64,000 bases of DNA, from positions 1 through 64,000 of the IMG/VR virus record IMGVR_UViG_3300035670_000048; one strand, given 5' to 3'. A program made the translations under genes and the position numbers. Positions within the stretch are counted from its first letter, which is position 1; every line of letters begins with the position of its first letter. Below the pieces are notes generated by a model. It was not told the origin of the DNA, made no database searches, and saw only the letters and a list, made by a program, of their open reading frames with translations. Source of the stretch: a virus. Taxonomy: Duplodnaviria > Heunggongvirae > Uroviricota > Caudoviricetes. This document shows positions 19,350-62,304 of the stretch, one piece after another.

Positions 19350-19383
19350 AATGAATGTTTGTTTGTTTATTTGTTATTACGTT

Positions 19384-19412: not shown

Positions 19413-19422
19413 CTGTCGGACC

Positions 19423-19626: not shown

Positions 19627-19653
19627 GTTTTTATTATTTTGTTAGTTAATTAT

Positions 19654-19682
19654 TTATTACAGGGTAAATATAATCTGGAAAT
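19654..19682 (-). promoter_or_regulatory. Early promoter motif, class A.
   Basis: ttattacagggtaaatataatctggaaat. Confidence 0.6.
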
Positions 19683-19687
19683 TGACA

Positions 19688-19933: not shown

Positions 19934-19981
19934 GTTCGTTTGTTTTTATGTACAGGGTAAAGTTAATCAGGACACACGCGC

Positions 19982-20197
19982 CTATCTAATCATAATAGGC
20001 GCTTTTTTAACTCTGCGTTTCGTGTGTTTCTTAACTGTCTTCATTTTGTAATACACTACATTGTTGATTGTAATGAATTCTTCATGACGCGCTGTACAGT
20101 AATCAAAGCGAATATAAGTGTCTCCGTTGAAGTGTTTAACCGGTACTACTGATGGGTTGATGTTCTTGATTCCTGGGTTGTGAATTGTTGCTGACAT
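19982..20197 (-). CDS. Hypothetical protein.
   Basis: 71 aa ORF. Early motif at 20221-20249. Confidence 0.5.
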   Translation of the reverse strand: MSATIHNPGIKNINPSVVPVKHFNGDTYIRFDYCTARHEEFITINNVVYYKMKTVKKHTKRRVKKAPIMIR

Positions 20198-41069: not shown

Positions 41070-41789
41070 TTAAAATCCGAACGTTTTGATATTATCGTCC
41101 TTGTCTATTAGTATAGCTGTTTTAGACTCTACCCAATCACCTGAGTTTAAATAATGGATTCCGTCTATTATTCTATCTTCGGCTGTATGAATATGACCAC
41201 ATATAACACCACTACATTTGTGTTGTTTAGCTAATTTAGCTGCATTTTCTTCAAAATCAGCTATAAATGATACTGCTGATTTGACTTTAGCTTTAATACG
41301 TTTACTAATTGAGTAATATGGTAAGCCGAATGATGCTCTGATACGGTTGAATGTTGTGTTTAATGCTAATGCTAGATCGTATCCAACTGATCCAATTTTA
41401 GCTACCCATTTCCAAGTTGATGAAAATACATCTAAAATATCACCATGAAATACTAAGTATTTCTTACGTTTAATGCCGATTATATATTCTTCACATAACG
41501 TTATATTAGACATTTTAATCATGAAGAACTCAGATAGGAACTCATCATGATTACCTCTAATCCAAATAATATCTGTTTTTTTAGATAACTCAAGTAATCT
41601 AAGTATAACTTTAGTATGTTGTTTTTTCCATTTTGAACCACGTTGTAATGCCCACCCATCAACTATATCACCATTCAATATTAGTTGTTCAGTTGGGTGT
41701 TCGTCTAAGAACTTTAAAAATTCTTTAGCCTGGCTATCTTTAGTTCCTAGATGGAGATCAGACACTATGATGGTTTTATATTTGGTCAT
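41070..41789 (-). CDS. LpxH-like calcineurin-fold metallophosphoesterase.
   Basis: IIVSDLHLGTKD ... LNGDIVDGW ... RGNHDEF ... ICGHIHT. Confidence 0.5.
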   Translation of the reverse strand: MTKYKTIIVSDLHLGTKDSQAKEFLKFLDEHPTEQLILNGDIVDGWALQRGSKWKKQHTKVILRLLELSKKTDIIWIRGNHDEFLSEFFMIKMSNITLCEEYIIGIKRKKYLVFHGDILDVFSSTWKWVAKIGSVGYDLALALNTTFNRIRASFGLPYYSISKRIKAKVKSAVSFIADFEENAAKLAKQHKCSGVICGHIHTAEDRIIDGIHYLNSGDWVESKTAILIDKDDNIKTFGF

Positions 41790-42774
41790 ATAATACGTTT
41801 TCTATTGCTTTTAATACTTGTTCGTCTGTTGATATTTTGAAATTATAATCAGCATCTGGTAGTTTTGTTCTTTCTAAGAACCATCTTAAATACACAGGTG
41901 CTAATTTACCTTTATATCCATTATGAATACGATTTGCTGCTTCAGCATTACATTCTTGTTCATATTGACCCTCAATTGGTATAGTCAAAACTCGTTTATT
42001 TAAGTACAATGCTTCAGCTACTGTTTCAAACCCACCTCCGGTAATTACTCCACTACATCCTAGTAAAGCATACATAAAATCAGATGGATTAGATGGTTTT
42101 AATCGTACATTAGACTTATTCCAAGTAGGTTTATTTACTTGAGATGAAAATATTACAAATTGGTATTCTGGGTATTTACCAAATAGATTCATTAATTCAT
42201 TTGGGTTGTAAGCCGATAAATAAACTAATATATATTTTTTATCGACTACTAACCCTTTACTATCACGTATAACGCTTCTAATATGAGGTGGTAATATGAA
42301 GTCATCATAATCTTTAAAATGAAATCCAACATTATGTTTACATGGAGCGTAATTCTTTAATATCCATTCAGCTACTTTATCCACTTTAGGTGGACGAGGT
42401 GTTTCTTCAGATAGGAATGCAGCGTGGTGAGATAATGATAGTGACTTAATACCTCGTAATTTAGCAGCATATGCTGATATCGGTTCAAAATCTGATATAA
42501 TTAAATCATATTGCTCAACTGGTAATGATAGTATATCCTTAATGAATTGGAATATATTTAATTGCCTGAATGTTTTCCAGTAATCTAATTTACCATTATC
42601 ATAAACGAATGTGAATCCTTTAAGTCGGTATTTAATGTTTTGTCCAATATCGATTGGATTCATTTCACCTGATACTAAAATATCTACATCGTAGTGTTTT
42701 AGAATAGGTAAAATTGACATTGCGCGTGACGCGTGGCCATAACCGGTGCCATTGAAGGCATATAATATTTTCAT
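41776..42774 (-). CDS. GT-B fold glycosyltransferase (GT28 / MurG-like).
   Basis: N-terminus MKILYAFNGTGYGHASRAMSILPIL (GxGxxGH). C-terminal GGGFETVAEALYLNKRVLTIPIEGQ. Confidence 0.45.
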   Translation of the reverse strand: MKILYAFNGTGYGHASRAMSILPILKHYDVDILVSGEMNPIDIGQNIKYRLKGFTFVYDNGKLDYWKTFRQLNIFQFIKDILSLPVEQYDLIISDFEPISAYAAKLRGIKSLSLSHHAAFLSEETPRPPKVDKVAEWILKNYAPCKHNVGFHFKDYDDFILPPHIRSVIRDSKGLVVDKKYILVYLSAYNPNELMNLFGKYPEYQFVIFSSQVNKPTWNKSNVRLKPSNPSDFMYALLGCSGVITGGGFETVAEALYLNKRVLTIPIEGQYEQECNAEAANRIHNGYKGKLAPVYLRWFLERTKLPDADYNFKISTDEQVLKAIENVLYDQI

Positions 42775-43310
42775 TAATCTACAAGTTTGTATATTTCATC
42801 TAAACAACGTCCTTGTTCATCGTAATCTAATCCAAATCCAACAATAAATTCATCATTGGTTAACTCCATGCCTACGTAATCAACAACCACATCAACTGTG
42901 TAATTCTTGGGGCGTGTAAATAAAGAGCAAATTTTAACGCTGTTAACGTGTTTTTCATGGATGAGATATTCTTTTAGCTGCTGCATTGTTAGGCCTGTTT
43001 CAACAATGTCCTCGACTATAATTATATTACGTTTAAACAAGTCGCGGGATATTCCAAGAACTTGTTTTACTTCACCTGTAGATTCAGTACCCTCATACGA
43101 TGATAACCTAATATATTCTAATTCAGGATTTAATGGGTATAAATGTTCCGCTAAATGAGCCGCGAATATACCTGCACCCTTTAATACTATTACCAATACT
43201 GGATTACGTACGTTGTCGTGCATAATCTCCATTGATAATGCCTTAATCATGGCATTTAATTTTTGTTTTGGTATTAGTGGTTCGAAATTTTTATCTTTAA
43301 TCTTCAACAT
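42774..43310 (-). CDS. hpt: Hypoxanthine-guanine phosphoribosyltransferase.
   Basis: PRPP-binding motif IIIVEDIVETGLTM. LKGAGIFAAHL, DYVGMELTNDEFIVGFGLDYDEQGRCL. Confidence 0.75.
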   Translation of the reverse strand: MLKIKDKNFEPLIPKQKLNAMIKALSMEIMHDNVRNPVLVIVLKGAGIFAAHLAEHLYPLNPELEYIRLSSYEGTESTGEVKQVLGISRDLFKRNIIIVEDIVETGLTMQQLKEYLIHEKHVNSVKICSLFTRPKNYTVDVVVDYVGMELTNDEFIVGFGLDYDEQGRCLDEIYKLVD

Positions 43311-46489: not shown

Positions 46490-46840
46490 CTATTTCTTCT
46501 TAGGATAGTAACGACGCTTTTTCTTCGCTGGCTTAGGTGTTTCAACAACTGGGGCTACTTCAGCTACAGGAGTAGCTTCAACTAAAGGTGTTTGTTCTTC
46601 AGCGATCTCTGCTTTTACCTTTTTAGATGGTGTAGCAGGAACAGAAGCTAACGCTTCATCAATCTTAGCAGCCATCTTTTCTACTTGTTCAATAGACTTA
46701 GATACACTAGCCGTTGCTTCTACAATTTCATCTGTTAGGTCCTTGTTTTCAAGAACAACCTCAACGGTCTCAGATGATTTGTACATGTAAAAAACTGCTC
46801 CAGCAATAATAACTAAAGCGATAATCGAAATTAACAACAT
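46490..46840 (-). CDS. Membrane protein with a basic C-terminal tail.
   Basis: 116 aa. N-terminal TM. C-terminal KPAKKKRRYYPKKK. Terminator-like hairpin downstream at 46448-46468. Confidence 0.5.
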   Translation of the reverse strand: MLLISIIALVIIAGAVFYMYKSSETVEVVLENKDLTDEIVEATASVSKSIEQVEKMAAKIDEALASVPATPSKKVKAEIAEEQTPLVEATPVAEVAPVVETPKPAKKKRRYYPKKK

Positions 46841-46864
46841 AATTGTTTGGGTTTGGTTTAAAAA

Positions 46865-47095
46865 TTAATCTTTGAAAAAGTCTAATACTACAAACTGCAT
46901 AAATTTAAACAGTGATACTGGTATAAATAAAAATAGTACAATAAATGGTATTCCGGGTATTAATAAATATCGTCTATATTTTCGTTTATATGAACGGTCT
47001 AATGATAAATCTAATAATGAATCTACCATAAGCGCTACTGCAACATTCATAACAATAAGAACAAATATATAAAAAGTGATTAGTACGTATTCCAT
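46865..47095 (-). CDS. Small 2-TM membrane protein.
   Basis: 76 aa, hydrophobic. Confidence 0.5.
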   Translation of the reverse strand: MEYVLITFYIFVLIVMNVAVALMVDSLLDLSLDRSYKRKYRRYLLIPGIPFIVLFLFIPVSLFKFMQFVVLDFFKD

Positions 47096-47298: not shown

Positions 47299-48066
47299 TT
47301 ATCCAATATATTTTTCATTGTTTGTTGAGTTATGTCTAGCATACCCACCCCACTTGTATCTGAAGTAATCATGACATTGTTGTTCTACAACTGAAGCGTT
47401 TGCTTTTTGTTCGTCTGATTTAGTACCTAATGATACGAAGTGATAGAATGATATATTATATAAGCGAATCATCTTCATGTTATTTAATTTACATTTCATA
47501 AAGAATTCCCAATCTACTACCCACGGTCCAGGATATGTTTCATCGAATCCACCTACTTTTAAGTAATCGGTTTTAGAGATGAATATGGGAAATGTAGATC
47601 CACATTCGTCTTGGTATTGCTTTGATAGCTGTACTTCCTCTACTCTGAAGCGCTCCAATTCAAATGTTTCAGGTGTGCGTCCGAAATCCTGAATGTGAAA
47701 TTGTGAAAACATACTTGGGTATGGTTCAATTTGATTGGGAGCATACACACATCCAGGTTTATATTGTGATTCTAATCTTGTATCCCAATCCACGGGAAAC
47801 ACGTTATCATCTTGGATATGAAGCACTAACTCGTTTGACGCATTGTAGTGGCCGAAGTTCATAGCTCGTATCATTCCCACGTTTTCCTCCAAGTTAAGTA
47901 TTGATATGTGTTCTTTATATTTATCTAATACTTCTTTATTGATATCGTAGAATCCATCTACAACTACGATGATTTCGTTCTTATTAGTTTGTCCTTCAAT
48001 ACATGATTTTAAACACAAATCAAGTGCTTCTGGTTCCTTATACGTTGGTATTACAACTGATATCAT
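47299..48066 (-). CDS. GT2-family glycosyltransferase. Start moved to MISVVIPTY..., which couples ATGA with the upstream gene.
   Basis: ISVVIPTYKEPEALDLCLKSCIEGQTNKNEIIVVVDGFYD is a GT-A fold DxD-type N-terminus. Confidence 0.55.
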   Translation of the reverse strand: MISVVIPTYKEPEALDLCLKSCIEGQTNKNEIIVVVDGFYDINKEVLDKYKEHISILNLEENVGMIRAMNFGHYNASNELVLHIQDDNVFPVDWDTRLESQYKPGCVYAPNQIEPYPSMFSQFHIQDFGRTPETFELERFRVEEVQLSKQYQDECGSTFPIFISKTDYLKVGGFDETYPGPWVVDWEFFMKCKLNNMKMIRLYNISFYHFVSLGTKSDEQKANASVVEQQCHDYFRYKWGGYARHNSTNNEKYIG

Positions 48067-48749
48067 ACTTTTGCCCAATTTGTTAATGAAGAAAGCCAAG
48101 CGGTTTCACCGTGAGTTGAATATCCTGGAATTGAGGATAATAATCGTTTGCCTCTATTATATAAATCAATAAACATATGAAAATCACGTGGGTATGTTTC
48201 TGAAGTATAATCACGTAATACTTCTTCGTCTTGACGTAATGTTTTTACTTTAGCAGCAAACGTCATTGTAGTTGCATTAGTTATCTTCCAATGCACTGAC
48301 TCCGTCAGGAATACACGAGTAATTTCACTGTTTTCTGTAATGTATGGATTACCACCTACATCTCCATTAATGTATTTATCTGGATGATCATATAGTGTTA
48401 CGTAGTCGCCTATTTCTAGTCCTTCTTCGATTAATTTTAACGAATTTGGTCTGTGTAGATAATCATTTTCGATAAAGTATACTATCTCGTTATCGTCTAG
48501 CGTTAAAGCTAAATCTAATGCTAAATTAAATGTACCTGCACCGTGTCCAACTGAAACGTACTGAATTTTATCTTCAGAGCAATACTGAGTAATCATTTTG
48601 TTTGTTTCCTCAGATGTATTATCTGCTATAATGGTCCAATCAGCGTCTTTGAATATATTAATTGCATTCCATAGACAATTTCGGTTAGTAATGTACTTTG
48701 GTTTTACTTTATTATATCCTGCGTCTGATATTCTGTAAATTATTTTCAT
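48063..48749 (-). CDS. Polysaccharide-biosynthesis protein (putative glycosyltransferase).
   Basis: Within the glycan operon. Start re-assigned to MKIIYRISDAGYNKVKP. Function is from context only. Confidence 0.35.
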   Translation of the reverse strand: MKIIYRISDAGYNKVKPKYITNRNCLWNAINIFKDADWTIIADNTSEETNKMITQYCSEDKIQYVSVGHGAGTFNLALDLALTLDDNEIVYFIENDYLHRPNSLKLIEEGLEIGDYVTLYDHPDKYINGDVGGNPYITENSEITRVFLTESVHWKITNATTMTFAAKVKTLRQDEEVLRDYTSETYPRDFHMFIDLYNRGKRLLSSIPGYSTHGETAWLSSLTNWAKV

Positions 48750-49540
48750 ACTGTTAATACTCCTTCTGTTAATACGTGATAATGACATACACCCTCAATC
48801 ATTATATTCTTATGACTCGAATCGTGTATCTCGTATTTTTTAACTAAATTTAATAAAGAAAGGTACTTATCTGGCGATATTAAATGTTCTTTTGATAAGT
48901 TATTGCGTTCTATACAATCACGTAAGAATTTCTCGCAACTCCAGTTTTCAATATACTCCCAAATGCGTCCGTTATAATCGTCTAATGATTTAATATACTT
49001 ATATGTTTCGTCAGCATAGTAAGCATCGTTTAAATAATCGGTTTTAGCTACGTTTATAAAGTAGAAATTTGTTTGTGGGTAGAAATCTTCATTTACTATA
49101 CGTTCAAAATCAAAATCGTATTTAAACATACCACCAAATCCGATTCCATTCAAATAATAGAAATCAGCATCACCTATCTGTTTATCTAATAACTCCTGAG
49201 TGACGATTGTATCATTTGCTGATTTACATAGCCACTCAATGTTATTTTCCTTACAGTAATTGAATACTAAGTTATCTAGGTCAACGTAGCCGTGATTGTG
49301 ACCTCTGTTTTCTGGGGATGTGATTAGAATACATTTTGGGAAATATTCACGCCACATTAACTCATATGGTTTAATCCATTCAGATGAGTTAAAGTTTGTA
49401 GCTATGATTATATTCTCATATTCCTCAAGTATATCTAGATTGTATTTAATATATTGCTCTATTCGATCAATACTTTCTTGAGAATCGATATAACCGATTG
49501 TGCCGTAAGCACTTTTATTCATTAATTCTCTGACAACCAT
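48746..49540 (-). CDS. Glycan-island protein of unknown function.
   Basis: 264 aa ORF, coupled to its neighbours. Confidence 0.4.
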   Translation of the reverse strand: MVVRELMNKSAYGTIGYIDSQESIDRIEQYIKYNLDILEEYENIIIATNFNSSEWIKPYELMWREYFPKCILITSPENRGHNHGYVDLDNLVFNYCKENNIEWLCKSANDTIVTQELLDKQIGDADFYYLNGIGFGGMFKYDFDFERIVNEDFYPQTNFYFINVAKTDYLNDAYYADETYKYIKSLDDYNGRIWEYIENWSCEKFLRDCIERNNLSKEHLISPDKYLSLLNLVKKYEIHDSSHKNIMIEGVCHYHVLTEGVLTV

Positions 49541-50262
49541 GCTGTTAATTTATCTATATTCATTGTTATGTCCTCAGGTGCAAATGCTGGTTTTGCTACT
49601 GGTTTAGTTCTAAATTCATACTTAGTTAAATCGTACCATGTTTTTTCTTCAGTTCCAACATTAAACACTCCACTAGCATTTGTTTTAATTAATTTAATAA
49701 TTAATGATGCTATTTTAGGTGTATAATCGCCATTTGTAGATTGATTACGCCACGCTTGTGCCCATGGGAATGGATATGGTTTATGTGATTCTCTAATGAT
49801 TAAATAATCATTTGAACGTAATTGCACATATGCATCCGCTACTAATTTAGTATAGCCATACCAATTTCTATCATTTGCTGGTACTGTTTCCTCGCTTGCT
49901 TTAGGTAATGAATTAACATAAACGTGATCTGTTGATATATGAATTAATTTTATACCCATATCGTTACAGTAGTCAGTTAACTCAGCAGCAAACTTATAAT
50001 TGATATTCCAATGTGGTTCTCTATCGTCTGAATAAGTAGATGTGTCTGCTATACAGTTTACTATTGTATTATACTTTAGTATTATTTCTCCAATTTCAGT
50101 AAATTGATGCAGTACTTTCTTATTTAAGCTAGTTACATCACTAATATTGAATCCATCTTTTTTACGGGATATATAATCCCATCCTGTCTGCTTTACTAAT
50201 TCAGAACCTAATTGTCCATCACCTAATACTAAGACTTTGTCTGCGGGAACACCTCTATGCAT
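49522..50262 (-). CDS. NAD(P)-dependent sugar-nucleotide reductase/epimerase (RmlD-like).
   Basis: N-terminal Rossmann VLVLGDGQLGSEL. ISTDHVY and YGYTK (YxxxK) are placed as in dTDP-4-dehydrorhamnose reductases. Confidence 0.6.
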   Translation of the reverse strand: MHRGVPADKVLVLGDGQLGSELVKQTGWDYISRKKDGFNISDVTSLNKKVLHQFTEIGEIILKYNTIVNCIADTSTYSDDREPHWNINYKFAAELTDYCNDMGIKLIHISTDHVYVNSLPKASEETVPANDRNWYGYTKLVADAYVQLRSNDYLIIRESHKPYPFPWAQAWRNQSTNGDYTPKIASLIIKLIKTNASGVFNVGTEEKTWYDLTKYEFRTKPVAKPAFAPEDITMNIDKLTAWLSEN

Positions 50263-50441
50263 AACACGTTTTTATCATTTATCATTATCATTCGGCCATC
50301 AGCAGTAGTCAGTTTTGTAAACTGACCCTGCTTGATGACTGCTGTTTCAATATCTTCAAATGTTCGTTTTTCACCACCTACAAAGTGAATGATTTGAGTA
50401 ACGTACTTACCTTGTTTTTTAACACTTGATTGTAAATCCAT
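50229..50441 (-). CDS. Small glycan-island protein.
   Basis: 70 aa ORF. Confidence 0.4.
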   Translation of the reverse strand: MDLQSSVKKQGKYVTQIIHFVGGEKRTFEDIETAVIKQGQFTKLTTADGRMIMINDKNVLCIEVFPQTKS

Positions 50442-51727
50442 TATTTAAACGCTTTAATTACTTGTTCAATATACTCAAATACTGGTTCAGTATAGTGTGG
50501 TGCAGCACCGATAAAGAATACTTTATCTAATACTTTATTTGCTTCAGGGTATAGACTCGAATCGTCTAGGAATGAATAGCCTGGATGTAATAAGATATTA
50601 CCTGCAAAGTAATTACGTGTTTGGATTTTATTTGCTTCTAGGTATTCAACTAAACGATGTTTTAAACCTGGCTCATCACAAATAAATGGTGTACCAAACC
50701 AACATGGATCTGCTTTATCCAATGCGATAGGTGCTCTTAATCCTGGAATATTGTCTGTAAAGATTTGAGTTAAACGATCATGTGATGTACGACGATTAGC
50801 TTCAATTTCATCTAATTTGACTAGTTGTTCTAACCCAATAGCACCTTGTAAATCCAATGGTTTTAAGTTATATCCCATTTCTGAAAACACATACTTGTGA
50901 TCGATTATACCATCATAATTTTCAAGCCATTTATCGAATCGATTACCGCATGTACCACATGATAATAAGTTAGCTGAACCGATGCAATAACAATCTCTAC
51001 CCCACCATGAAATCGAAACGAATAATTTCTTTAATTCATCATCGTTTGTACATACCATTCCACCTTCACCAGTTGAGATGTGGTGTGCAGGATAAAACGA
51101 ATTTGAGAATGCAACATAGTATTCGCTTAAGTATTCATTACCCCATTTAGAACCTAATGAATCGCAGTTATCACCTACTAATTGAATATTGTGTTTAGTA
51201 GCGATTTCAAGTAATCGATCCATATCTGGTGGATTACCTAATACGGGCGATACGAAGATTGCCTTAGTACGAGGTGTGATTTTAGCCTCTAACGCGTCTA
51301 AATCAAAGTTTAATGTATCCCACTCAATGTCTACGAATACTGGTTTTAATCGATGTTGATAAAGAACCGAGATAGTAGTAGCAAATCCAACAGGCGATAC
51401 AAGTACTTCATCATCGTCTGCCCACTTGAATCTGCGCTTAAGCGCCGCAATTAATACAAGATTTGCTGACGAACCTGAATTAACCATATGTGAGTGTTTC
51501 ACATTGAATCGCTTACTGAATTGACGTTCGAATTTAAATACTTTCTCACCTGTAGTAATCCATTTACCATTTAAGAATGTATCAATAGCGGCTTCTGTTT
51601 CTTTATTATCCCAATACGGTCCTGAATAGTAAATTGGTGTTTTACCTGGTTCAAAACTCTTAGCATTATAGATATAAGGTGCTACGTGATTACCAATTAA
51701 TGATTGTATGTTTTCTAAATTTACCAT
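50441..51727 (-). CDS. DegT/DnrJ/EryC1/StrS-family PLP-dependent sugar aminotransferase or 3-dehydrase (RfbH/DdhC-like by length).
   Basis: 428 aa. GKWITTGEKVFKFERQF ... NSGSSANLVLIAAL ... DNCDSLGSKW ... FSNSFYPAHHISTGEGGMV follows the DegT family pattern. The length fits E1-dehydrase-type members. Confidence 0.65.
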   Translation of the reverse strand: MVNLENIQSLIGNHVAPYIYNAKSFEPGKTPIYYSGPYWDNKETEAAIDTFLNGKWITTGEKVFKFERQFSKRFNVKHSHMVNSGSSANLVLIAALKRRFKWADDDEVLVSPVGFATTISVLYQHRLKPVFVDIEWDTLNFDLDALEAKITPRTKAIFVSPVLGNPPDMDRLLEIATKHNIQLVGDNCDSLGSKWGNEYLSEYYVAFSNSFYPAHHISTGEGGMVCTNDDELKKLFVSISWWGRDCYCIGSANLLSCGTCGNRFDKWLENYDGIIDHKYVFSEMGYNLKPLDLQGAIGLEQLVKLDEIEANRRTSHDRLTQIFTDNIPGLRAPIALDKADPCWFGTPFICDEPGLKHRLVEYLEANKIQTRNYFAGNILLHPGYSFLDDSSLYPEANKVLDKVFFIGAAPHYTEPVFEYIEQVIKAFK

Positions 51728-51730
51728 TTA

Positions 51731-52600
51731 TTATATTTTTGAAATTAAATACTCTGCTAATGCTTTAGTTGTTAAGTGTTGTTTTGTATGCTCGTAAACT
51801 TGATCTAATATACTGAAGAAATTACTTTCATCAAAATTATTAGCTAAATTTCGGGCCTCTAGTAGTAATTCCTTGGGGAAGTTGGCTAATGTATCCTTAG
51901 GGCAGTCTTCTAATCCTATAAAGTAAGGCATACAATAGTTACCTAATATTTCGTAGTGACGCATACAATCCCATCCTGCCTTCTTCATTGTTACTCCGTA
52001 GTATGATTTCTGATAGTCTTCATAATATGATTCTTCAGTTTTGAAGATATATGTTTCATGTTGGCCTGGAATTACTGTACCGTACTCTTGTGTTTTATTT
52101 TTATTTGGTATAGCTAATTTTGAAGTTGGAAATGCAAATGTAATCGGTAATAGGTTTGAATGGTTATCTGCTAGTTCACGTTTAAAGTATAGGTGTTTTG
52201 TATATGATGAATCTAATTCTGACTCATCATTGCCATCCACTAATATAATTCTATTTGATGGATAGTAGTTTGATACTAAAAACCAATAATCCTTACAACG
52301 TTTGATAGCACCATAAATAATATAATCATAATATCGATCTTTAATTTTTTGTTCAATATCAGTTCGATCAATATTATTTTCACCAATTAGCCAGAATGAA
52401 GTCATTCCACCCCACAAGTGTTTAGTATCGATTTTACCTTCATATTCCTTATATAATGTAGGTATTTGAGTACTATCTACTACATTATCTCCGAATAACT
52501 CCCTTAATCCATAGAATAATAGATCATTCTGGTAGTCATTAATGAATCCACCACTCGCCTTAGCTATATCTAAATAATTAGTTACGTATAATATTTTCAT
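51731..52600 (-). CDS. Glycan-island protein of unknown function.
   Basis: 289 aa ORF. Confidence 0.4.
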   Translation of the reverse strand: MKILYVTNYLDIAKASGGFINDYQNDLLFYGLRELFGDNVVDSTQIPTLYKEYEGKIDTKHLWGGMTSFWLIGENNIDRTDIEQKIKDRYYDYIIYGAIKRCKDYWFLVSNYYPSNRIILVDGNDESELDSSYTKHLYFKRELADNHSNLLPITFAFPTSKLAIPNKNKTQEYGTVIPGQHETYIFKTEESYYEDYQKSYYGVTMKKAGWDCMRHYEILGNYCMPYFIGLEDCPKDTLANFPKELLLEARNLANNFDESNFFSILDQVYEHTKQHLTTKALAEYLISKI

Positions 52601-53514
52601 GATAGGAATACTTCATTAAATTGTTTCATTACGTTTTCTGGAGTGTATTCTTTATAACAGTTCCAATCGATAGGTTCAACACCACGTTTAATATTAAGTA
52701 AGAAATGATACAACTCATCATAATTAGAATAGTATGTACCTTTATCACCTAACATTTCGATATGATTACGTTCAGGTGAGTTCTTATATGTAATCACTGG
52801 TTTATTTTTGGTTGAAAACTCAGCAATAGCTAAACCGAATGTTTCTCCTCGTTCACGAGCATGAATCATAGCATCGCATGTATTAATGAATGCTACTTTC
52901 TGATTCATATCAGTGGTTCCTTTAAGGAATTTTACATTTGGTAAATCACAAAACGCATCCTGATTCATGAATAAAAATAGTAAGTCGCTTCGTAAAGTAG
53001 CTGCATCAATTACTGCTTGGCGTGCAAATGGTAATTCAAAGTTATTACCTCCATAATATCCGAGTACGAATCTATAATGGCGTCCGAATACTTCTTTATA
53101 ATCGTATTTTTCATCTGGTAAATCAACCATATGAGGAACGAATGGAGATCCATTACCATGAGTATCAGCTAGCCATTTAGATACATAAGCATAAACATCA
53201 CCATGAGGCTCATATGATGGAAATACAGCGTGTACTAAATTTTTAGCATTTGGATGTAGTACTCCATCATTAAATCCGTACTTTAAAACATGAAAGTAAT
53301 CACATTCAATATTATATATTTCATTTATATTTGGAGCTACTATCGTTTCGAATCGATTATTGAATTTATCATAGCTGGTTAATTCAGCATTCTGAGTAGT
53401 GGCAATAATTGATTTATTACCTAATATAGTTTCATTATAATGAGCGTAATCGTATACTGCTATACTAGTGCCTCGCTCATTTAGGTTCGGATCGTAGAAT
53501 AAAATGGTTTTCAT
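52597..53514 (-). CDS. GT-B glycosyltransferase (GT4-like C-terminal domain).
   Basis: RERGETFGLAIAEFSTKNKPVITY is the GT4 E-x7-E-type donor-binding region. Confidence 0.45.
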   Translation of the reverse strand: MKTILFYDPNLNERGTSIAVYDYAHYNETILGNKSIIATTQNAELTSYDKFNNRFETIVAPNINEIYNIECDYFHVLKYGFNDGVLHPNAKNLVHAVFPSYEPHGDVYAYVSKWLADTHGNGSPFVPHMVDLPDEKYDYKEVFGRHYRFVLGYYGGNNFELPFARQAVIDAATLRSDLLFLFMNQDAFCDLPNVKFLKGTTDMNQKVAFINTCDAMIHARERGETFGLAIAEFSTKNKPVITYKNSPERNHIEMLGDKGTYYSNYDELYHFLLNIKRGVEPIDWNCYKEYTPENVMKQFNEVFLS

Positions 53515-54239
53515 ATTTCAACTATAGGTAGTAATTCAGCTAATCGTTCTACTTTATCAATGCTATGTACTGTACAGATGTGATCACATGGGTATTCATT
53601 ATCGATTCTGAACATTCTGTAGCCGAATGATTTAATGTAATTTAATAATTGTTCTTTAGTTACATTAAATTTAGCTAATTGGTGTTCCTCGATTTCAATG
53701 AATATATCTGGTAGTGATTGCTTGATTGTATTTTCAGCACCTAATAAAGCAAATAATTCATACCCTTGTACATCCATTTTGATAAAGTCAGGTTGTGAAT
53801 CTATCATATCTAATGTGATAACTTGTACTTCATCTCCACCTTCACCTACTGATGTATCTCCTATATTTACCCAATCTAAATCGTATGATACAGGACTCAT
53901 CGTTGTAATACCTTGCTCTTGACCTAACGCAGCATGAACTACAATAGCATTATATATGTTATTTAAAATCATATTACCACTTAATTGCTGATTAACAATG
54001 CGTTGTGGTTCGAATGCAAATAATCTACCTGATGGACCAATTTGTTTACCCATTATTACAGCATTATATCCGAAATTTGATCCACAATCAAGTACTGTAT
54101 CTCCTTCTTTAACTAAATGTTGTACTACAGTTTTAAAGTGTGGTTCCCATGGTTTGCCACTTTTTAAATGCTGTGCTATAGCATCGTTAGGGAAGACGAT
54201 AAAATTACCGTCTTCGTTTTGGAATAATTCTGATATCAT
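53511..54239 (-). CDS. FkbM-family SAM-dependent methyltransferase.
   Basis: VLDCGSNFGYNAVIMGKQIGPSGRLFAFEPQ. Confidence 0.65.
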   Translation of the reverse strand: MISELFQNEDGNFIVFPNDAIAQHLKSGKPWEPHFKTVVQHLVKEGDTVLDCGSNFGYNAVIMGKQIGPSGRLFAFEPQRIVNQQLSGNMILNNIYNAIVVHAALGQEQGITTMSPVSYDLDWVNIGDTSVGEGGDEVQVITLDMIDSQPDFIKMDVQGYELFALLGAENTIKQSLPDIFIEIEEHQLAKFNVTKEQLLNYIKSFGYRMFRIDNEYPCDHICTVHSIDKVERLAELLPIVEI

Positions 54240-54868
54240 ATTGTATCGTAGAATGAGTTTTGTTGTTCTTGACGTTGAATATCTTTATAATGCCATAAAA
54301 ATAATTCAGCTGGAATATATGATAGAGATCTATGTCCATCAAGTACTTCGTGTACTTTATTTTTCCATTTGATTGTACCGTTATTTTTGAATATGCGGTG
54401 CTGCCAGTCTGGGAAATTGATTAATTCTTGTCCATCGATTTTTTGTATATTCCAATTCCATTTAGCAATATGTTCTGGGGTGATACCGTCTACTACATTG
54501 CGTCTTGAAATGTAAAACGATTCAGCTAATCCACGATTAGATTCAAATACAGCGGGTAGATATGCCCAAAATTCATTTGATGGTAATTCATCAGCATCAA
54601 TTTGAACAATATAATCCCCAGAACAGTACTTGATAAAGTTATTCTTGAATGAAGCAAAATCTTTATTCAGTGAAGCAGGGTACCATGCGATACCCTTACT
54701 TGCCACTGTTAATGATCGTAGATACTCTTCTACTTTAGGTGATCCATTATCTGTATCAAATAAAACAACAATTTCATCATCTTGTTGTTTATTTTCTAAA
54801 ATATTATCTATTAATGTCTGTACTTCGATTAATTCATGACAGACTGTAATTGCAAAACTAAACTTCAT
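54236..54868 (-). CDS. GT2-family glycosyltransferase.
   Basis: FAITVCHELIEVQTLIDNILENKQQDDEIVVLFDTDNGS. Confidence 0.5.
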   Translation of the reverse strand: MKFSFAITVCHELIEVQTLIDNILENKQQDDEIVVLFDTDNGSPKVEEYLRSLTVASKGIAWYPASLNKDFASFKNNFIKYCSGDYIVQIDADELPSNEFWAYLPAVFESNRGLAESFYISRRNVVDGITPEHIAKWNWNIQKIDGQELINFPDWQHRIFKNNGTIKWKNKVHEVLDGHRSLSYIPAELFLWHYKDIQRQEQQNSFYDTI

Positions 54869-55307
54869 TTTGATCTTGATTTAATAAAACCGAATAAGCA
54901 TATAGTGCGGCTGGGAACATTACGTTTGGAAATAATGTTGAATTAGCCATATCTAATTTATGTGTTTGTCCAACGATTGCTTTATCGTCTGCTGTAACGG
55001 GAACATATGCTGCTACTCTGAATCCCCAACTATCTGCGTTTTTACCGTCTGGAAATAACATAGCTCTATTCTGTTCGTTTAGTACTGTTGGGTACCAAAC
55101 AAATCCATCATCATCCACTAATTTTAAGTCTTTAAACAATTCGGGTTGTGAATCATATATTGATTTTTCTACATCAGATCCTTCTACCATTCCTTCATTG
55201 GTTTGGTATCCACAGCTCTGACAAATGCGAGTATTTACACCTCCCATTTTAACTTCAAATACACTAGATTCAATTCCACAAATAGGACAATCATGTAGTT
55301 CTTCCAT
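54858..55307 (-). CDS. Zinc-ribbon protein.
   Basis: CPICG...CQSCGY at the N-terminus. Confidence 0.45.
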   Translation of the reverse strand: MEELHDCPICGIESSVFEVKMGGVNTRICQSCGYQTNEGMVEGSDVEKSIYDSQPELFKDLKLVDDDGFVWYPTVLNEQNRAMLFPDGKNADSWGFRVAAYVPVTADDKAIVGQTHKLDMANSTLFPNVMFPAALYAYSVLLNQDQNEV

Positions 55308-56611
55308 TATTCAGCTTTTTTAAGTGTTGGTAATTTATTTAATTTAGGTAATTCCAAAGGTACAAATACTGGAATCGGCTTAGCACGTTCGTCTAGAATC
55401 TGAGTTAATCGCTCAGTCATTTTATCTAATGAGAAGTTATTCTTAGATATACTTGCTTGCTTTTTGGCACCTGGTAAGTATTTCTTATAATTTTCAAATA
55501 CTTCTTTTAATGCGTATCCTGCTTGTCCATCATTTGGAGTAAACCATTGTGAATCAGCAATTAGCATATTAGGTACTACTGCTGATGAATGTATATTCTT
55601 TAATTCACCACCAACTAAAATTGATGCGTCTTTATCTAAGAAGTCAACATGACCAGACCATCCAGATGCAATTACTGGTTTTTCAGATAAAGTAAATTCT
55701 AATAGAGGGCGACCGAATCCTTCACCTTTAGTAAACGATACCATCGCTTTTACTTTTGGATGGTTATATAAATCGTTTACATCTTCGTCTTCTAAATCAC
55801 CGTGTAGTAAATAAATGTTTGGTATAATACCTTTAGTTGTTTTACGTACTGCTTCGATTTTTTCTAATATTGAATTACGATCCATAATCGAAGTTGTAGC
55901 TGCATTCGTTTTTAAAATTAATGCTGGTGCTTTAGTTTTACCTTTAAATACTTCTAAAAATGCTTTAATCATATACGCTATATTCTTTCTATCCTCGCCG
56001 AACTCGCCTTGCAGCCAATGTCCTACAAATAAAAAACAGAAGTCTTCCTTAATCTTAGATATTTCGGACATTAAATCAGTTTTAAGTGGAGTCGTTTTAA
56101 AGTACTTATTTAAATCAACACCTTCAAATAATACCTCAACTGGTGTTGTTAATTCAACAATACCTTCTGGTTTATTCGTCATTTTATTCTTCTGTTCGAA
56201 TTTCGAATTTTCGAATACTTGCTTAGTGTGATTTGAAGAACCTAAAATTAAATCCATACGATTACATCCTTCAATCCAAGATGGATCACAGATTGTAGTT
56301 TCAATACCAGCAGTAACACCAATGTTATTGTATTTGCCTACTTTCTGAAATTCATTCGGTACTGTAATCTGGAGCCATACATCTGGCTGTACAGTCATTT
56401 GAGGAATAATACGTGATTTTAAATCAGCTTCTTCCGCAATCTCATCGTTTAGAAAGCCAAATGGAGTTGATCCCCATCGTTGAGATAATAATTTAATATC
56501 CCACTCATCGCCTTTGGCTTTAATTAACGATTTAATAAAATCTCTAGAGCGTGCACCGTAGCCACTAAATGTGTCTACAGGTGAGCTTACTACACATAAC
56601 GGCTTATTCAT
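55307..56611 (-). CDS. GT4/GT1-type GT-B glycosyltransferase.
   Basis: GEGFGRPLLEFTLSEKPVIASGWSGH. Confidence 0.6.
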   Translation of the reverse strand: MNKPLCVVSSPVDTFSGYGARSRDFIKSLIKAKGDEWDIKLLSQRWGSTPFGFLNDEIAEEADLKSRIIPQMTVQPDVWLQITVPNEFQKVGKYNNIGVTAGIETTICDPSWIEGCNRMDLILGSSNHTKQVFENSKFEQKNKMTNKPEGIVELTTPVEVLFEGVDLNKYFKTTPLKTDLMSEISKIKEDFCFLFVGHWLQGEFGEDRKNIAYMIKAFLEVFKGKTKAPALILKTNAATTSIMDRNSILEKIEAVRKTTKGIIPNIYLLHGDLEDEDVNDLYNHPKVKAMVSFTKGEGFGRPLLEFTLSEKPVIASGWSGHVDFLDKDASILVGGELKNIHSSAVVPNMLIADSQWFTPNDGQAGYALKEVFENYKKYLPGAKKQASISKNNFSLDKMTERLTQILDERAKPIPVFVPLELPKLNKLPTLKKAE

Positions 56612-58046
56612 GTTCTGCTACTGGGTATTTTAAATAATTTGGTTTATAATCTTCAATTTTAATTAAGTCAAATATTGAACGTGGAGTCCATTTTTCGAAT
56701 GTTTCATCAATACCATCAATGATGTTTTTAGACATATTTGCTGCTGTCATCATTGCTTCATCTGATGTTACCCACTTACGAGCTAACACACCTAAGTTAT
56801 TATAGTAACTAGCATCATTTATTTTTAATGAATATGCATTATATAATTGATTAGCTACATCTCTAAAGTCACATCTATCATCAAAGATATACGGAGTTGG
56901 AGGAGAACCAATTAATGATATGTTACGTGGGAAAACTGGAAATGCAAATGTGCCTGCTTTCTTATATTTGCCTAAGTGATTCGATCCGAACGCTTCAGTA
57001 AATTCAATCCACTTACCATTCTCGTCTTCAAAACGCATTTGATCCTGCATACCACCTGTTACGTTAGCTAGAATTGGAGTACCTGCCATCATTGATTCAG
57101 TTAATGCTAATCCCCATCCTTCGTTTGATGAAATTAAAGCAGTTAAATCGGCTAAGTTATAGTACTTATTTAGCTGTTCTGTATTAATCTTCTGATTTGA
57201 GATGAATATGTTTTTCTGTTTATTACCCATTAACATTTCAATTACGCGTGGTAAATCAGTACCATTATCATCTACTGCGTCTGTATGTAATACTAAAGCA
57301 CATTTATCAGCTTGTTCTTTAGGTAATTGATCTAAAAACGTTTTAAATGCTAGAATCAAGTCTGATGTTGATTTACGTCTTAAATTACGTGAATTATAGA
57401 ACGTAACAAAATCAAATTCTAATTCACCAAATACTTGTTTTTTAAATGATTTGAAATCATCTGCTGACTTATCTAACGGATAGAATTGTTTTTCATTAAT
57501 ACCGTGAGGAACGTATTTGATAACTTTATCATTTGCTAAATCACCTAATACTACACGATTGATGTTTTCTGTTTGCTTCGAAATAGCAAATAACGTATCG
57601 CATGATTCGTAGTATGGCTTATTATACAATGGATAAGGCAAATCATCCCAAATGTTTAAATAGATAATAGGCATTTGCTGACGTAACTCACGCTCGTGTT
57701 GAAATAACCATACCCAATAGCGTGGATCGGTAAATAACATAATTGCGTCTGGTTTTTCGATATCAATCAATTGACGTACAAATTCGATAGTACCGTATCC
57801 ATCAGTTGGATAAACCATAATTGATGAATCTTCGATTCCAGCGTTTTTGTTTGTGTCTGCTGATAGATCTAATCGTTGTCCTTTTTCTGGGTGATTAATA
57901 GCACCTCCAATATTTACCCAATTGAAGTGGTGTGCTGTACCAACAACCATTTCTCTAGCCATTGTAGCAATACCAGAGGTAAATCGAATGTCGTCACACA
58001 GTAGTAGGATTTTTTTCCTTTGATCCTTAGGAATGTAATTTTGCAT
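56604..58046 (-). CDS. GT4-type GT-B glycosyltransferase.
   Basis: NEGWGLALTESMMAGTPILANVTGGMQD. Confidence 0.6.
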   Translation of the reverse strand: MQNYIPKDQRKKILLLCDDIRFTSGIATMAREMVVGTAHHFNWVNIGGAINHPEKGQRLDLSADTNKNAGIEDSSIMVYPTDGYGTIEFVRQLIDIEKPDAIMLFTDPRYWVWLFQHERELRQQMPIIYLNIWDDLPYPLYNKPYYESCDTLFAISKQTENINRVVLGDLANDKVIKYVPHGINEKQFYPLDKSADDFKSFKKQVFGELEFDFVTFYNSRNLRRKSTSDLILAFKTFLDQLPKEQADKCALVLHTDAVDDNGTDLPRVIEMLMGNKQKNIFISNQKINTEQLNKYYNLADLTALISSNEGWGLALTESMMAGTPILANVTGGMQDQMRFEDENGKWIEFTEAFGSNHLGKYKKAGTFAFPVFPRNISLIGSPPTPYIFDDRCDFRDVANQLYNAYSLKINDASYYNNLGVLARKWVTSDEAMMTAANMSKNIIDGIDETFEKWTPRSIFDLIKIEDYKPNYLKYPVAEHE

Positions 58047-58049
58047 AAC

Positions 58050-58679
58050 TTATTTATATTGTGTTTGTATTTGTTTATATTTTTCTTCTCCTAAGTAATA
58101 CCATGGTTTGTGATAACCTAAAGTACCTAATTCGAATATACTCTCAACACTGAATTTTTTAGCGGCTTCTATAGGTGCTAATTTACCTATATTATGTTCG
58201 GTCATTATTTTAGTAAAGTATAAATCTTCACCACAATCACGTTTCCAATTATAATCTGAACATATTTGCATCATTATTTTTGGGTTTCGTAAAGATAAAC
58301 CACCATTTCCAACATATGGAAAATATTCATATGGAGCGCCGATATAATCATACTCAAGAAAATCTTCAATACCACTTCTTAGTAATCCACTATCGCTTTG
58401 GAATATCAATACTCTATCGTAATCAGTGAAGTGAGCCCAAAATTTAAATCCGTGATCTGTAAGTAATAAATTATAGCAATGAACTGAATTATCTTCTAAT
58501 TCGATTTCTACTATTGTATAATCTATATTGAGATTCTTTAATTCATTACTGTATTTATTCTTTAATTCAGGTGTTGTAAATAGAAAATAATGAGTATCTA
58601 AAGGTAAGTAGGGGATATGATTTAAAAACACCTCACTTATATTAATATTCCTAGTTTCTACTATAGCAGCACTTAACAT
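58050..58679 (-). CDS. Glycan-island protein of unknown function.
   Basis: 209 aa ORF coupled to 58046. Confidence 0.4.
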   Translation of the reverse strand: MLSAAIVETRNINISEVFLNHIPYLPLDTHYFLFTTPELKNKYSNELKNLNIDYTIVEIELEDNSVHCYNLLLTDHGFKFWAHFTDYDRVLIFQSDSGLLRSGIEDFLEYDYIGAPYEYFPYVGNGGLSLRNPKIMMQICSDYNWKRDCGEDLYFTKIMTEHNIGKLAPIEAAKKFSVESIFELGTLGYHKPWYYLGEEKYKQIQTQYK

Positions 58680-58694
58680 AACTTTTATTATTGA

Positions 58695-58895
58695 TTATAA
58701 ACTTCCTGACATTACTAATGCAGTGTGATTATGTATTTGTTTTTTGAATTCGTCATTCGTCAAATACAAGTGCATAGCTCTGTTCATTAATTTTTGTAAG
58801 TTGAATTTATCTTTTATAGAGGCAACTTTAAATCCCTCAAATAAGTCTCCGTGTACCTTTACACTTGTTAAGACTAGTTGTTCATTTTTTCCCAT
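58695..58895 (-). CDS. Hypothetical protein.
   Basis: 66 aa ORF. A/T promoter-like box at 58901-58932. Confidence 0.45.
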   Translation of the reverse strand: MGKNEQLVLTSVKVHGDLFEGFKVASIKDKFNLQKLMNRAMHLYLTNDEFKKQIHNHTALVMSGSL

Positions 58896-62215: not shown

Positions 62216-62230
62216 AACATTTATTTTAAG

Positions 62231-62304
62231 TGGGCCAGGTAGGGATCGAACCTACTACCTCCGCATTATGAGTGCGTTGCTCTAACCGAATGAGCTACAA
62301 GCCC
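62231..62304 (-). tRNA. tRNA-Met (anticodon CAT; could equally be an Ile2-type).
   Basis: RC: GGGCTTG-TA-GCTC-ATTCGGTTA-GAGC-A-ACGCA-CTCATAA-TGCGG-AGGTA-GTAGG-TTCGATC-CCTAC-CTGGCCC-A. Clean cloverleaf (one T-T in the acceptor), 74 nt. Confidence 0.8.

Follow-up and report, generated by a model that had tools for sequence, protein, structure and literature searches.

A lineage-fixed glycosyltransferase core and an exchangeable sugar-tailoring cassette in an uncultured Immutovirus-like phage

The virus record IMGVR_UViG_3300035670_000048 (Caudoviricetes) was analyzed over its positions 1 to 64,000, a stretch hereafter called the window, with a focus on an island of 14 open reading frames (ORFs) that pack positions 47299–58679, every one on the minus strand. 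The phage origin of the window was confirmed, and its source is an uncultured myovirus akin to Flavobacterium phage vB_FspM_immuto (hereafter immuto; genus Immutovirus, 160 kb), whose gene order it parallels; besides the island it holds a baseplate module (approximately 1–16 kb) and genes for a clamp loader, a PD-(D/E)XK nuclease, a lysozyme, an RNA ligase and a tRNA. A sequence-only reading of this DNA had described 14 co-oriented genes encoding a phage-borne modified-sugar pathway with several oligosaccharide-building transferases, and gene layout and domain assignments bear out both points. Neighbouring genes overlap by up to 34 nt or stand up to 15 nt apart, many of the overlaps being of 4 nt and of the ATGA type, and no terminator-like hairpin was found on the minus strand within the island, a strong one lying downstream of it (46470–46446). 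The guanine-plus-cytosine (GC) content, 0.32–0.345, is the same as in the remaining window. Independent gene calls on identical metagenome contigs match the island ORFs, except that the last two genes start later, at 48749 (228 amino acids, aa) and 48066 (255 aa), respectively. The island is found gene for gene in a 175.7-kb metagenome contig (JGI 3300071567 Ga0621872_00328, here L137). A scan for sigma-70 promoters gave no enrichment (66 found vs. 82 expected), and since its model excludes Bacteroidota promoters, the timing of expression cannot be inferred from it. From the upstream end, the genes are as follows, where GT stands for glycosyltransferase.

58695–58895, minus strand: 66-aa ORF directly upstream of the island, noted for its conservation
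58050–58679, minus strand: DUF5672 protein of 209 aa (Pfam DUF5672, 1.4e-27, 96.8 bits)
56604–58046, minus strand: GT480, core GT of GT-B type, GT4-like (Pfam Glycos_transf_1, 1.4e-12, above cutoff)
55307–56611, minus strand: GT434, core GT-B enzyme and distant paralogue of GT480 (PHROG 2170 and hhalign)
54858–55307, minus strand: core Zn-ribbon protein of 149 aa (CxxC...CxxC)
54236–54868, minus strand: GT2b, core GT of GT-A type, GT2 (Pfam GT2, 2.1e-8, 34.7 bits, above cutoff)
53511–54239, minus strand: FkbM-family S-adenosylmethionine-dependent methyltransferase (Pfam Methyltransf_21, 3.8e-18)
52597–53514, minus strand: GT1w, probable GT-B enzyme, GT4-like (Pfam Glycos_transf_1, 1.2e-5, sub-threshold)
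51731–52600, minus strand: orphan protein of 289 aa from a large uncharacterised family
50441–51727, minus strand: predicted E1/RfbH-type nucleoside diphosphate (NDP)-4-keto-6-deoxyhexose 3-dehydratase, dependent on pyridoxamine phosphate (PMP) and a [2Fe-2S] cluster
50229–50441, minus strand: 70-aa ORF, a conserved follower of DegT-family genes
49522–50262, minus strand: short RmlD-like short-chain dehydrogenase/reductase (SDR) of 246 aa (Pfam RmlD_sub_bind, 5.6e-18, 65.5 bits)
48746–49540, minus strand: predicted GT-A-fold GT (AlphaFold2 and Foldseek)
48063–48749, minus strand: GT2w, putative GT-A enzyme (Pfam GT2, 3.3e-4, sub-threshold)
47299–48066, minus strand: GT2a, GT2 enzyme of GT-A type and last gene of the island (Pfam GT2, 1.4e-16, above cutoff)
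48750–54235, minus strand: variable cassette of seven genes, delimited by blastn breakpoints

A megablast search with the island against 50,697 phage records returned no match, and relatives were reached at the protein level only. By that route more than 600 IMG/VR contigs were found to encode relatives of GT480, and a protein-by-locus matrix revealed a near-constant block consisting of clamp loader A, the PD-(D/E)XK nuclease, the 66-aa ORF, GT480, GT434, the Zn-ribbon protein and GT2b. This block recurs in practically every locus whose length suffices to reveal it, and everything downstream of it varies. As a non-circular check, loci were collected by means of the nuclease and counted if they had at least 2 kb of downstream sequence; GT480 lay within 2.5 kb of the nuclease gene in all 68 of these. 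GT480, GT434, the Zn-ribbon protein and GT2b consequently constitute a lineage-fixed core downstream of the clamp-loader and nuclease genes. In distant relatives the core GTs are better conserved than the adjoining replication genes, with identities to the window of 60–66% for GT480 and 53–64% for GT434, against 40–50% for the nuclease and 30–41% for clamp loader A. The core synteny is kept in immuto as well as in Microcystis phage Mel-JY01. In the latter (L138, PP395634.1 83441–89690) the order is clamp loader, PD-(D/E)XK nuclease, GT480 homologue, a 455-aa ORF, a GT-A enzyme, a methyltransferase and a GT, and the annotation splits the GT480 homologue into neighbouring ORFs of 573 and 909 nt, which suggests a frameshift or a sequencing error. 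The 66-aa ORF, for which neither Pfam nor PHROG gave a match, sits directly upstream of GT480 in 80 out of 81 related loci (41–91% identity) and is possibly the first gene of the unit. The sequence-only reading had considered a cluster of this size rare in phages. For this clade that does not hold, given the numbers above and an annotated 10.8-kb equivalent in immuto, and larger sugar islands are carried by cyanophages.

The variable part could be delimited against four loci with 75–89% nucleotide identity to the window (L008, L011, L012 and L004). In blastn comparisons with these, homology ends at 54235–54246, i.e. at the stop codon of GT2b, and restarts at 48749–48759, i.e. at the start of GT2w, and the intervening segment, 48750–54235, is a cassette exchanged through recombination at gene boundaries. 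What replaces it differs: L008 and L004 have a full-length RmlD, a UDP-galactopyranose mutase and unknowns, L011 has an FkbM enzyme, a second methyltransferase, a GT7-like enzyme and DUF3431, and L012 has a methyltransferase, a flavin (FAD) oxidoreductase and a TIM-barrel isomerase. Over the first 5.5 kb past GT2b, 36 loci contained 230 ORFs in 118 families, 81 of these being singletons, arranged in 34 distinct architectures. The cassette of the window is itself a mosaic of sub-modules found separately in other loci, namely FkbM-GT1w-51731 (also in L066), the 3-dehydratase, 70-aa ORF and short SDR (the dehydratase-SDR pair also in L059, L074 and L048), and the 48746 gene (also in L059, L066, L012 and L045). 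A hypervariable centre between conserved flanks is also seen in O-antigen and capsule loci, a likeness that is population-genetic only.

The island is hence not the single unit it had been taken for, as it consists of several tiers: the fixed core, the swappable cassette, the two distal GT-A genes (GT2w and GT2a) and an inserted DUF5672 gene. The last-mentioned is missing at this position in L008, L011, L012, L004 and L010, where homology skips 58070–58676, and it is present in L006, L034 and L137. Both junctions share the start context AGTTATG, and the gene, which separates the 66-aa ORF from GT480, is a lineage-specific insertion.

At least seven proteins of the island are GTs or GT-like. 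Curated Pfam cutoffs were employed, and by these three of the six GT calls of the sequence-only reading (47299, 54236 and 56604) stand, the other three (48063, 52597 and 55307) being sub-threshold and dependent on secondary evidence. Among the core enzymes, GT480 scores 47.9 bits against Glycos_transf_1 (cutoff 26.4), matches PHROG 2170 (2e-22), has an EX7E motif (EGWGLALTE) at residue 309 that is invariant across the family alignment, and is 58% identical to immuto gp181. Its top match in the PDB is B736L of chlorovirus NY-2A (2e-7). GT434 stays below the Pfam cutoff at 20.9–22.7 bits (22.7 vs. 27); its assignment comes from a full-length match to PHROG 2170, "glycosyltransferase" (5e-20), from hhalign against the GT480 family (96% probability, E 4e-9) and from an EX7E motif (EGFGRPLLE; E297, E305) that is invariant in 27 homologues, and the top PDB match of its family profile is again B736L (5e-4). 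The third core GT, GT2b, has a D91-A-D93 motif that is invariant in 24 homologues. Within the cassette, GT1w falls just short of the cutoff (25.3 vs. 26.4 bits), with an EX7E motif (ETFGLAIAE) at residue 224 and a weak match to PHROG 2170 (9e-4), and hhalign to GT480 gave a probability of just 13%. The 48746 protein, previously listed as unknown, was modelled by AlphaFold2 at high confidence (predicted local distance difference test, pLDDT, 92; predicted template-modelling score, pTM, 0.90), and the top 50 Foldseek matches in the PDB were all GT-A transferases (probability 0.99–1.00, E approximately 1e-5, TM approximately 0.4). With some of its homologues named "GT2 family glycosyltransferase" by JGI, it is predicted from the model to be a GT-A-fold GT. 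Of the two distal genes, GT2a reaches 61.3 bits against Pfam GT2 and is 63–67% identical in L008, L011 and L012. GT2w remains a putative GT-A enzyme (21.1 bits vs. a cutoff of 23.3), with an invariant ENDY motif, 61–73% identity in L008, L011, L012 and L041, and a family profile whose top PDB match is the archetypal GT-A enzyme SpsA (E 0.012); hhalign detected no significant relationship to the GT2b family.

The cassette most likely specifies a deoxysugar. The 50441 product matches Pfam DegT (8.9e-70, 236 bits) and aligns end to end, over residues 8–422, with Yersinia E1 (PDB 3bcx, 6.6e-71), a CDP-6-deoxy-L-threo-D-glycero-4-hexulose 3-dehydrase. Its segment FYPAHHISTGEGG is aligned to FYPAHHITMGEGG of E1 (His220), which places a His in the position of the catalytic Lys; the entry for the H220K mutant, 3bb8, reads PAKH there. 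The Cys residues of DNCD, RDCYC and TCGNRF are aligned to C193, C251, C253 and C261 of E1, which we take to be the Fe-S ligands, a numbering that reportedly goes back to Agnihotri et al. in 2004. What sets the E1/SpnQ class apart from ColD and the aminotransferases is a His in place of the Lys together with four Fe-S Cys residues (PMC8987622). Accordingly the candidate function of aminotransferase was rejected on account of the His, and the gene is best classified, from these residues, as a predicted E1/RfbH-type 3-dehydratase, in agreement with the DegT/RfbH-like enzyme of dehydrase-like length initially proposed. Such an enzyme would lead to a 3,6-dideoxyhexose, so that of the methylated amino- or dideoxy-hexose first envisaged the dideoxy option is retained and the amino option drops. 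We regard the presence of a 3,6-dideoxyhexose branch as probable. His-for-Lys DegT enzymes occur in 8 out of 36 cassettes of the clade. The window enzyme is 76–81% identical to viral homologues, against no more than 64% for the best of 50 cellular homologues drawn from a collection of 185,579 species' genomes, and these genes would therefore circulate in the phage gene pool; a recent capture of the cassette from a host was rejected for this gene on the same figures and on its typical GC content.

The short SDR that follows matches positions 2–149 of the 287 in the RmlD_sub_bind profile, i.e. the N-terminal half alone, and scores 58.4 bits against TIGR01214 (cutoff 224). It aligns with PDB 2ggs (1.4e-8) at the STD and YxxxK motifs, and GxGxxG is present. 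The RmlD-like reductase of the sequence-only reading is thereby kept as an RmlD-like SDR and given up as a full RmlD, as judged from its sequence. It comes directly after the dehydratase gene in every phage relative with this E1 type (L059, L074 and L048) and in three cellular loci (L087, L107 and L136), in the first of which it is fused to GT2; we infer that it is the terminal NDP-4-keto-3,6-dideoxyhexose 4-reductase. The 70-aa ORF between the two has no family match above threshold in Pfam or PHROG. It is 84% identical in L059 (15688–15894) and 66% identical in immuto (L001, 19030–19254), where it stands behind a different DegT-family gene, and it also occurs in L061 and L178. The DegT-family genes ahead of it are approximately 25% identical, encoding a dehydratase in the window and an aminotransferase in immuto. 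With only one Cys, it is not an obvious Fe-S partner. Earlier steps of the pathway were searched for in the 52 other window ORFs of approximately 90 aa or more, a set without the shorter ORFs and two large structural genes, and, as noted before, no nucleotidyltransferase or 4,6-dehydratase was found, nor any E3-like reductase of the Fer2/FAD/NAD kind; the 64-kb window represents part of a genome of approximately 175 kb. Of the loci with the dehydratase-SDR pair, L048 has an extra nucleotidyltransferase-like ORF, weakly matched and below cutoff (NTP_transf_3, 9e-5), and L074 has an extra SDR resembling a 4,6-dehydratase. In cellular genomes the E1 gene usually comes directly after a 4,6-dehydratase-like gene. 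The NDP-sugar precursor is probably host-made or encoded beyond the 64 kb.

The FkbM-family methyltransferase, as originally called, exceeds the cutoffs of both Methyltransf_21 (66.6 bits vs. 22.7) and NCBIfam fkbM_fam TIGR01444 (85.9 bits vs. 37.7) and is presumably a sugar O-methylase. The orphan 51731 stays an orphan, as it was listed to begin with: no match was obtained in Pfam, NCBIfam or the PDB, including a PDB profile search, hhalign against the GT434 family was negative, and its AlphaFold2 model from a shallow alignment (pLDDT 51) was unusable for a fold search. Its family is large, with 1801 cluster representatives at 50% identity at E ≤ 1e-3 and 526 at E ≤ 1e-30, and includes natural fusions with GT2, FkbM, Methyltransf_24 and DUF5672 domains. 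Because of these fusions it is counted among the glycan-tailoring modules and may represent a new family of transferases. The DUF5672 protein 58050 was also among the earlier unknowns and can now be named by its domain; it is probably GT-A-like. No PDB homologue was found for it, and the literature search on DUF5672 yielded nothing useful. There are hints that it may be the transferase for the dideoxyhexose. Genes of this family were seen beside E1-type genes in three unrelated settings, namely the window phage, Synechococcus phage RN05-S, where one follows the E1 gene directly and is annotated as having a GT-A type domain (L002, 10247–10969), and a contig from a Methanobacterium metagenome-assembled genome with the order E1, SDR::GT2 fusion, DUF5672 (L087, 4280–4939). 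The Zn-ribbon protein of the core, possibly an adaptor, is fast-evolving (27–40% identity), with CxxC...CxxC invariant in 26 homologues and a conserved PELYKDL...WYP block. A PDB profile search for it returned generic Zn ribbons only, PHROG gave no match, and it is absent from Mel-JY01.

These observations make it very probable that the locus is a glycan-assembly system with a core/cassette architecture. No membrane segment was predicted in any of the 14 island proteins, none having a 19-residue window that reaches a Kyte-Doolittle mean of 1.6, and the island gave no Pfam match to flippase, polymerase, ligase, ABC exporter, initiating phosphoglycosyl transferase or Gtr families. Assembly must therefore be cytoplasmic, and both an autonomous O-antigen or capsule pathway and seroconversion of the Gtr type (GtrA/GtrB/GtrX) were rejected. 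In the mechanism we propose, the host would provide an NDP-4-keto-6-deoxyhexose, by analogy with E1 most likely CDP-4-keto-6-deoxyglucose, from which the E1-type enzyme would strip the C3 hydroxyl. E1 depends on the reductase E3, whereas SpnQ is served by ferredoxin or flavodoxin reductases of a general kind (PMC8987622); as no E3 is encoded in the window, electrons are proposed to come from such general reductases of the host, in the manner of SpnQ. The short SDR would then reduce C4 to yield the NDP-3,6-dideoxyhexose. The three core GTs would build a conserved inner oligosaccharide, to which the GTs of the cassette and the distal genes would attach strain-specific outer sugars, the dideoxyhexose included, and one outer sugar would be O-methylated by the FkbM enzyme.

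Of the acceptors suggested by the sequence-only reading, i.e. the virion, the host surface or phage DNA, the first two are kept here and the third is considered unlikely. The acceptor would most probably be one of the phage's own virion proteins, from capsid, tail or fibre, giving each strain a particle "glycotype" of its own. This is favored over the host envelope because a lineage whose sole cultured member was isolated as a virulent phage keeps the core fixed and strongly conserved, because the genes are phage-resident, because a core with variable decoration parallels the capsid glycans of chloroviruses and the clusters of Megavirinae, and because the top PDB match of both core GT-B enzymes, if weak, is a chlorovirus GT. 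A virion protein as acceptor nevertheless comes somewhat short of an even chance in our estimation, and the explanation as a whole, acceptor included, seems to us equally likely to be right or wrong. Several points weigh against it. The island lies approximately 25–30 kb from the baseplate/fibre module, beside replication genes, and virion glycoproteins are not known from any member of the clade. The similarity to B736L is weak, and the acceptor of B736L is itself not established. The cassette repertoire (UDP-galactopyranose mutase, RmlD, E1, FkbM) is that of O-antigen loci. At the level of the enzymes, half of the six initial GT calls are sub-threshold, no genes for the pathway steps preceding the dehydratase, nor an E3, were found in the window, and a large part of the C-terminal substrate domain normally present is missing from the short SDR. 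The dehydratase scores 356.8 bits against NCBIfam RfbH, under the equivalog cutoff of 423, for which reason its nucleotide carrier and substrate specificity are uncertain.

The enzyme repertoire would also suit a remodelling of the host envelope. Soluble GTs could modify undecaprenyl-linked O-antigen, capsule or protein O-glycan intermediates at the cytoplasmic face, or the lipopolysaccharide core, so that the altered glycan on cells and debris would no longer bind the phage, resulting in superinfection exclusion or less trapping of progeny; the variety of cassettes would then follow that of host surfaces. An E1-type enzyme, RmlD, UDP-galactopyranose mutase, FkbM and several GT2/GT4 enzymes are a classical O-antigen set, the variable centre between conserved flanks recalls bacterial O-antigen and capsule loci, and genes for two small predicted membrane proteins adjoin the island on its downstream side. 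PHROG, moreover, files the island GTs under "moron, auxiliary metabolic gene and host takeover". Yet all 14 proteins are predicted to be soluble, with no initiating phosphoglycosyl transferase, flippase, polymerase, ligase or Gtr protein among them, and a core that is fixed across the lineage, more conserved than the adjoining replication genes and present in a sole cultured member isolated as a virulent phage does not resemble the patchy pattern of accessory conversion genes. The closer relationship of the dehydratase to viral than to cellular homologues also speaks against recent capture from a host. We consider envelope remodelling the main rival reading, if a rather unlikely one, the virion protein remaining the preferred acceptor.

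A soluble or lipid glycoconjugate away from both particle and envelope, e.g. a glycosylated small molecule, a glycolipid or a diversion of the host's nucleotide-sugar pool, would fit the lack of a recognisably encoded acceptor and the trio of phosphoribosyltransferase, GT and phosphoesterase genes nearby (41070–43310), and E1/SpnQ-type enzymes are used in natural-product deoxysugar pathways as well (PMC8987622). It is highly improbable all the same, as there are no genes for aglycone biosynthesis, at least seven transferases imply an ordered oligosaccharide rather than a rewired pool, and lineage-wide fixation combined with strain variation points to a recognised surface rather than to a metabolite.

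DNA hypermodification, in which the GTs would protect phage DNA from restriction by placing mono- or oligosaccharides on a modified base, like the systems of T4 (a/b-GT) and RB69 (arabinosyl-5hoC) and the clusters for glycans on 5-hydroxymethylcytosine, is brought to mind by the adjoining replication genes, by a weak match of GT480 to Pfam GT4-conflict (3e-6) and by the unusually long ThyA homologue of immuto (423 aa). Phage GT clusters that add up to trisaccharides to DNA are known, and the known DNA-glycosylating systems require an enzyme for a hydroxylated-pyrimidine handle (bioRxiv 10.1101/2023.12.21.572611, PMC13326640). No ThyA-like, TET/JBP or C5-methyltransferase gene was present among the island genes and the 52 other ORFs of the window. 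Virion DNA of immuto, which has the orthologous core and a cassette of its own, was analyzed by liquid chromatography with ultraviolet and tandem mass-spectrometric detection and contained dA, dC, dT and, wholly replacing dG, fdPreQ1, with no glycosylated nucleoside reported (PMC10516641). With no handle enzyme in the window, no glycosylated base reported for immuto, and at least seven GTs, a deoxysugar branch and a strain-level cassette turnover that exceed any known system of DNA glycosylation, DNA is a highly improbable acceptor. The 7-deazaguanine set of immuto (FolE, QueD, QueE, QueC, QueF-like, DpdA and a PurN-like formyltransferase; L086/L001, NC_055915 18607–37015) and its 423-aa "thymidylate synthase" (NC_055915 26884–28155) have no counterparts inside the 64-kb window.

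The closest known system is that of immuto, with an orthologous core in the same position: nuclease, small ORF, GT (58%), GT (60%), a 459-bp ORF (34%) and GT2 (45%). Sugar-tailoring genes follow the core in an annotated block of approximately 10.8 kb, in which the 70-aa ORF recurs (66%). Its cassette is another one, however, with a WecE-like aminotransferase, a methyltransferase, a mannosyltransferase, a PglD-like acetyltransferase and a WcaG-like epimerase, and without the E1-type dehydratase, DUF5672, orphan 51731 and GT-A 48746. No study of these genes in immuto or Mel-JY01 was found in the literature; the block of immuto is annotated in GenBank. Cyanophage islands (Synechococcus phages S-B05, RN05-S and S-H68) likewise combine an E1-type gene (56%) followed by a DUF5672/GT-A-type gene with FkbM and many GTs and SDRs in a single co-oriented block. 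These islands belong to another lineage and host, measure at least 19 kb and include their own cytidylyltransferase, 4,6-dehydratase and 3,5-epimerase, and the GT480/GT434 core is absent from the 19-kb region examined.

Tailed phages of mycobacteria offer a parallel in their phage-encoded GTs, sometimes together with a methyltransferase; Freeman and co-workers (2023, in Cell Host Microbe) are reported to have found that these glycosylate capsid and tail proteins. Those operons reportedly comprise two to four genes adjoining structural genes, with neither a deoxysugar branch nor a core/cassette division, and glycosylation was shown experimentally there.

Among the bacterial loci, rfb/ddh of Salmonella and Yersinia (DdhA, DdhB, DdhC, i.e. 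E1/RfbH, DdhD, i.e. E3, and abequose or paratose synthase) share the succession of an E1-type PMP/[2Fe-2S] 3-dehydratase and an SDR 4-reductase as well as the variable centre between conserved flanks. DdhA, DdhB, E3, Wzx, Wzy and an initiating transferase were not found in the window, though, its E1 is approximately 40% identical, and in place of a recognisable RfbJ/RfbS orthologue there is a truncated RmlD-like reductase. In chloroviruses, the glycan has a strain-universal core and a strain-variable decoration (PMC7826918), and PBCV-1 resembles the window in its virus-encoded, soluble cytoplasmic GTs and methyltransferase modules. It is a eukaryotic virus with a known acceptor (N-linked on Vp54), its genes are scattered rather than united in one core-plus-cassette operon, and sequence similarity is marginal (2e-7, 5e-4). 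Megavirinae, mimivirus and its relatives, have clade-specific clusters for fibril glycosylation, in which rare bacterial-type sugars come to decorate the particle (PMC10117803). Variable gene content in a conserved genomic setting is common to both, but these are giant eukaryotic viruses with complete nucleotide-sugar pathways, of which the window encodes the last two steps only, and there is no detectable orthology.

Glycosylation clusters in phages and giant viruses are thus already known as a kind; virus-encoded glycosylation is well documented in giant algal and amoebal viruses and a few mycobacteriophages, and barely explored in environmental phages. We did not find described in the literature a lineage-fixed GT core with a cassette recombining at gene boundaries, quantified across dozens of genomes, in combination with a minimal module of E1 and short SDR and with two large uncharacterised families tied to such a core and cassette. 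What emerges is a widespread lineage of large aquatic phages with a fixed GT core and a tailoring cassette that is traded among close relatives, like in bacterial O-antigen loci. With the glycan on the particle, phage diversity would gain a new axis in the form of "serotypes", which would bear on host range, defence evasion, particle stability and adhesion; with the glycan on the host, the host surface would be rewritten lineage-wide during infection. Since a cultured relative exists in immuto (on Flavobacterium sp. LMO8), both outcomes are directly testable. The 51731 family and DUF5672 are flagged as candidate glycan-tailoring enzymes, and the two-gene combination of E1 and short SDR as a candidate minimal module for making 3,6-dideoxyhexoses.

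A more far-reaching version of the virion-protein reading is offered tentatively, and we think it rather doubtful. According to this, a lineage of abundant aquatic myoviruses, with hosts among Bacteroidota and, via phages like Mel-JY01, cyanobacteria, might coat its particles with a glycan whose inner part is made by the fixed core and whose outer part by the recombining cassette, the island then being a virion "serotype" locus. There might be at least 34 glycotypes in 36 genomes, with 3,6-dideoxyhexoses, galactofuranose and O-methyl sugars, under diversifying selection by host defences, lectins, proteases, grazers or particle adhesion, and the 51731 family (approximately 1800 clusters at 50% identity) and DUF5672 might both be new GT families.

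The surroundings of the island contain further genes of the same or related kinds. Directly downstream of it, ahead of the hairpin at 46470–46446, the minus strand encodes at 46490–47095 two proteins, 76 and 116 aa long, which are predicted to be membrane proteins (Kyte-Doolittle maxima of 2.7 over 19 residues) and whose genes may be co-transcribed with the island. Located 4.5 kb downstream of the island is a minus-strand trio (41070–43310) of sugar- or nucleotide-related genes, which includes an extra GT outside the island:

42774–43310, minus strand: phosphoribosyltransferase (2e-19)
41776–42774, minus strand: GT28/MurG-like GT (Glyco_trans_1_3, 2e-31)
41070–41789, minus strand: metallophosphoesterase

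The GT and phosphoesterase genes of this trio are absent from the otherwise near-identical contig L137, in which the lysozyme gene directly follows that of the phosphoribosyltransferase. Another difference between the two is found directly upstream of the clamp-loader gene, where L137 has a 1092-aa gene (positions 1–758) with Pfam hits to CarboxypepD_reg and OMP_b-brl_4, resembling a TonB-dependent receptor, and the window has a tRNA-Met gene (62230–62304) and small ORFs. At the other end of the window, an ORF with a T5orf172/MUG113 domain (17881–18351, 4.8e-16) borders a GC-richer patch at 18000–20000 (0.38 vs. approximately 0.30), where the structural module gives way to a block of small genes; the corresponding place in immuto is likewise occupied by a T5orf172 gene. 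Lastly, positions 1–2000 stand out by a GC skew of +0.40 and a GC content of 0.356, above that of the structural genes that follow.

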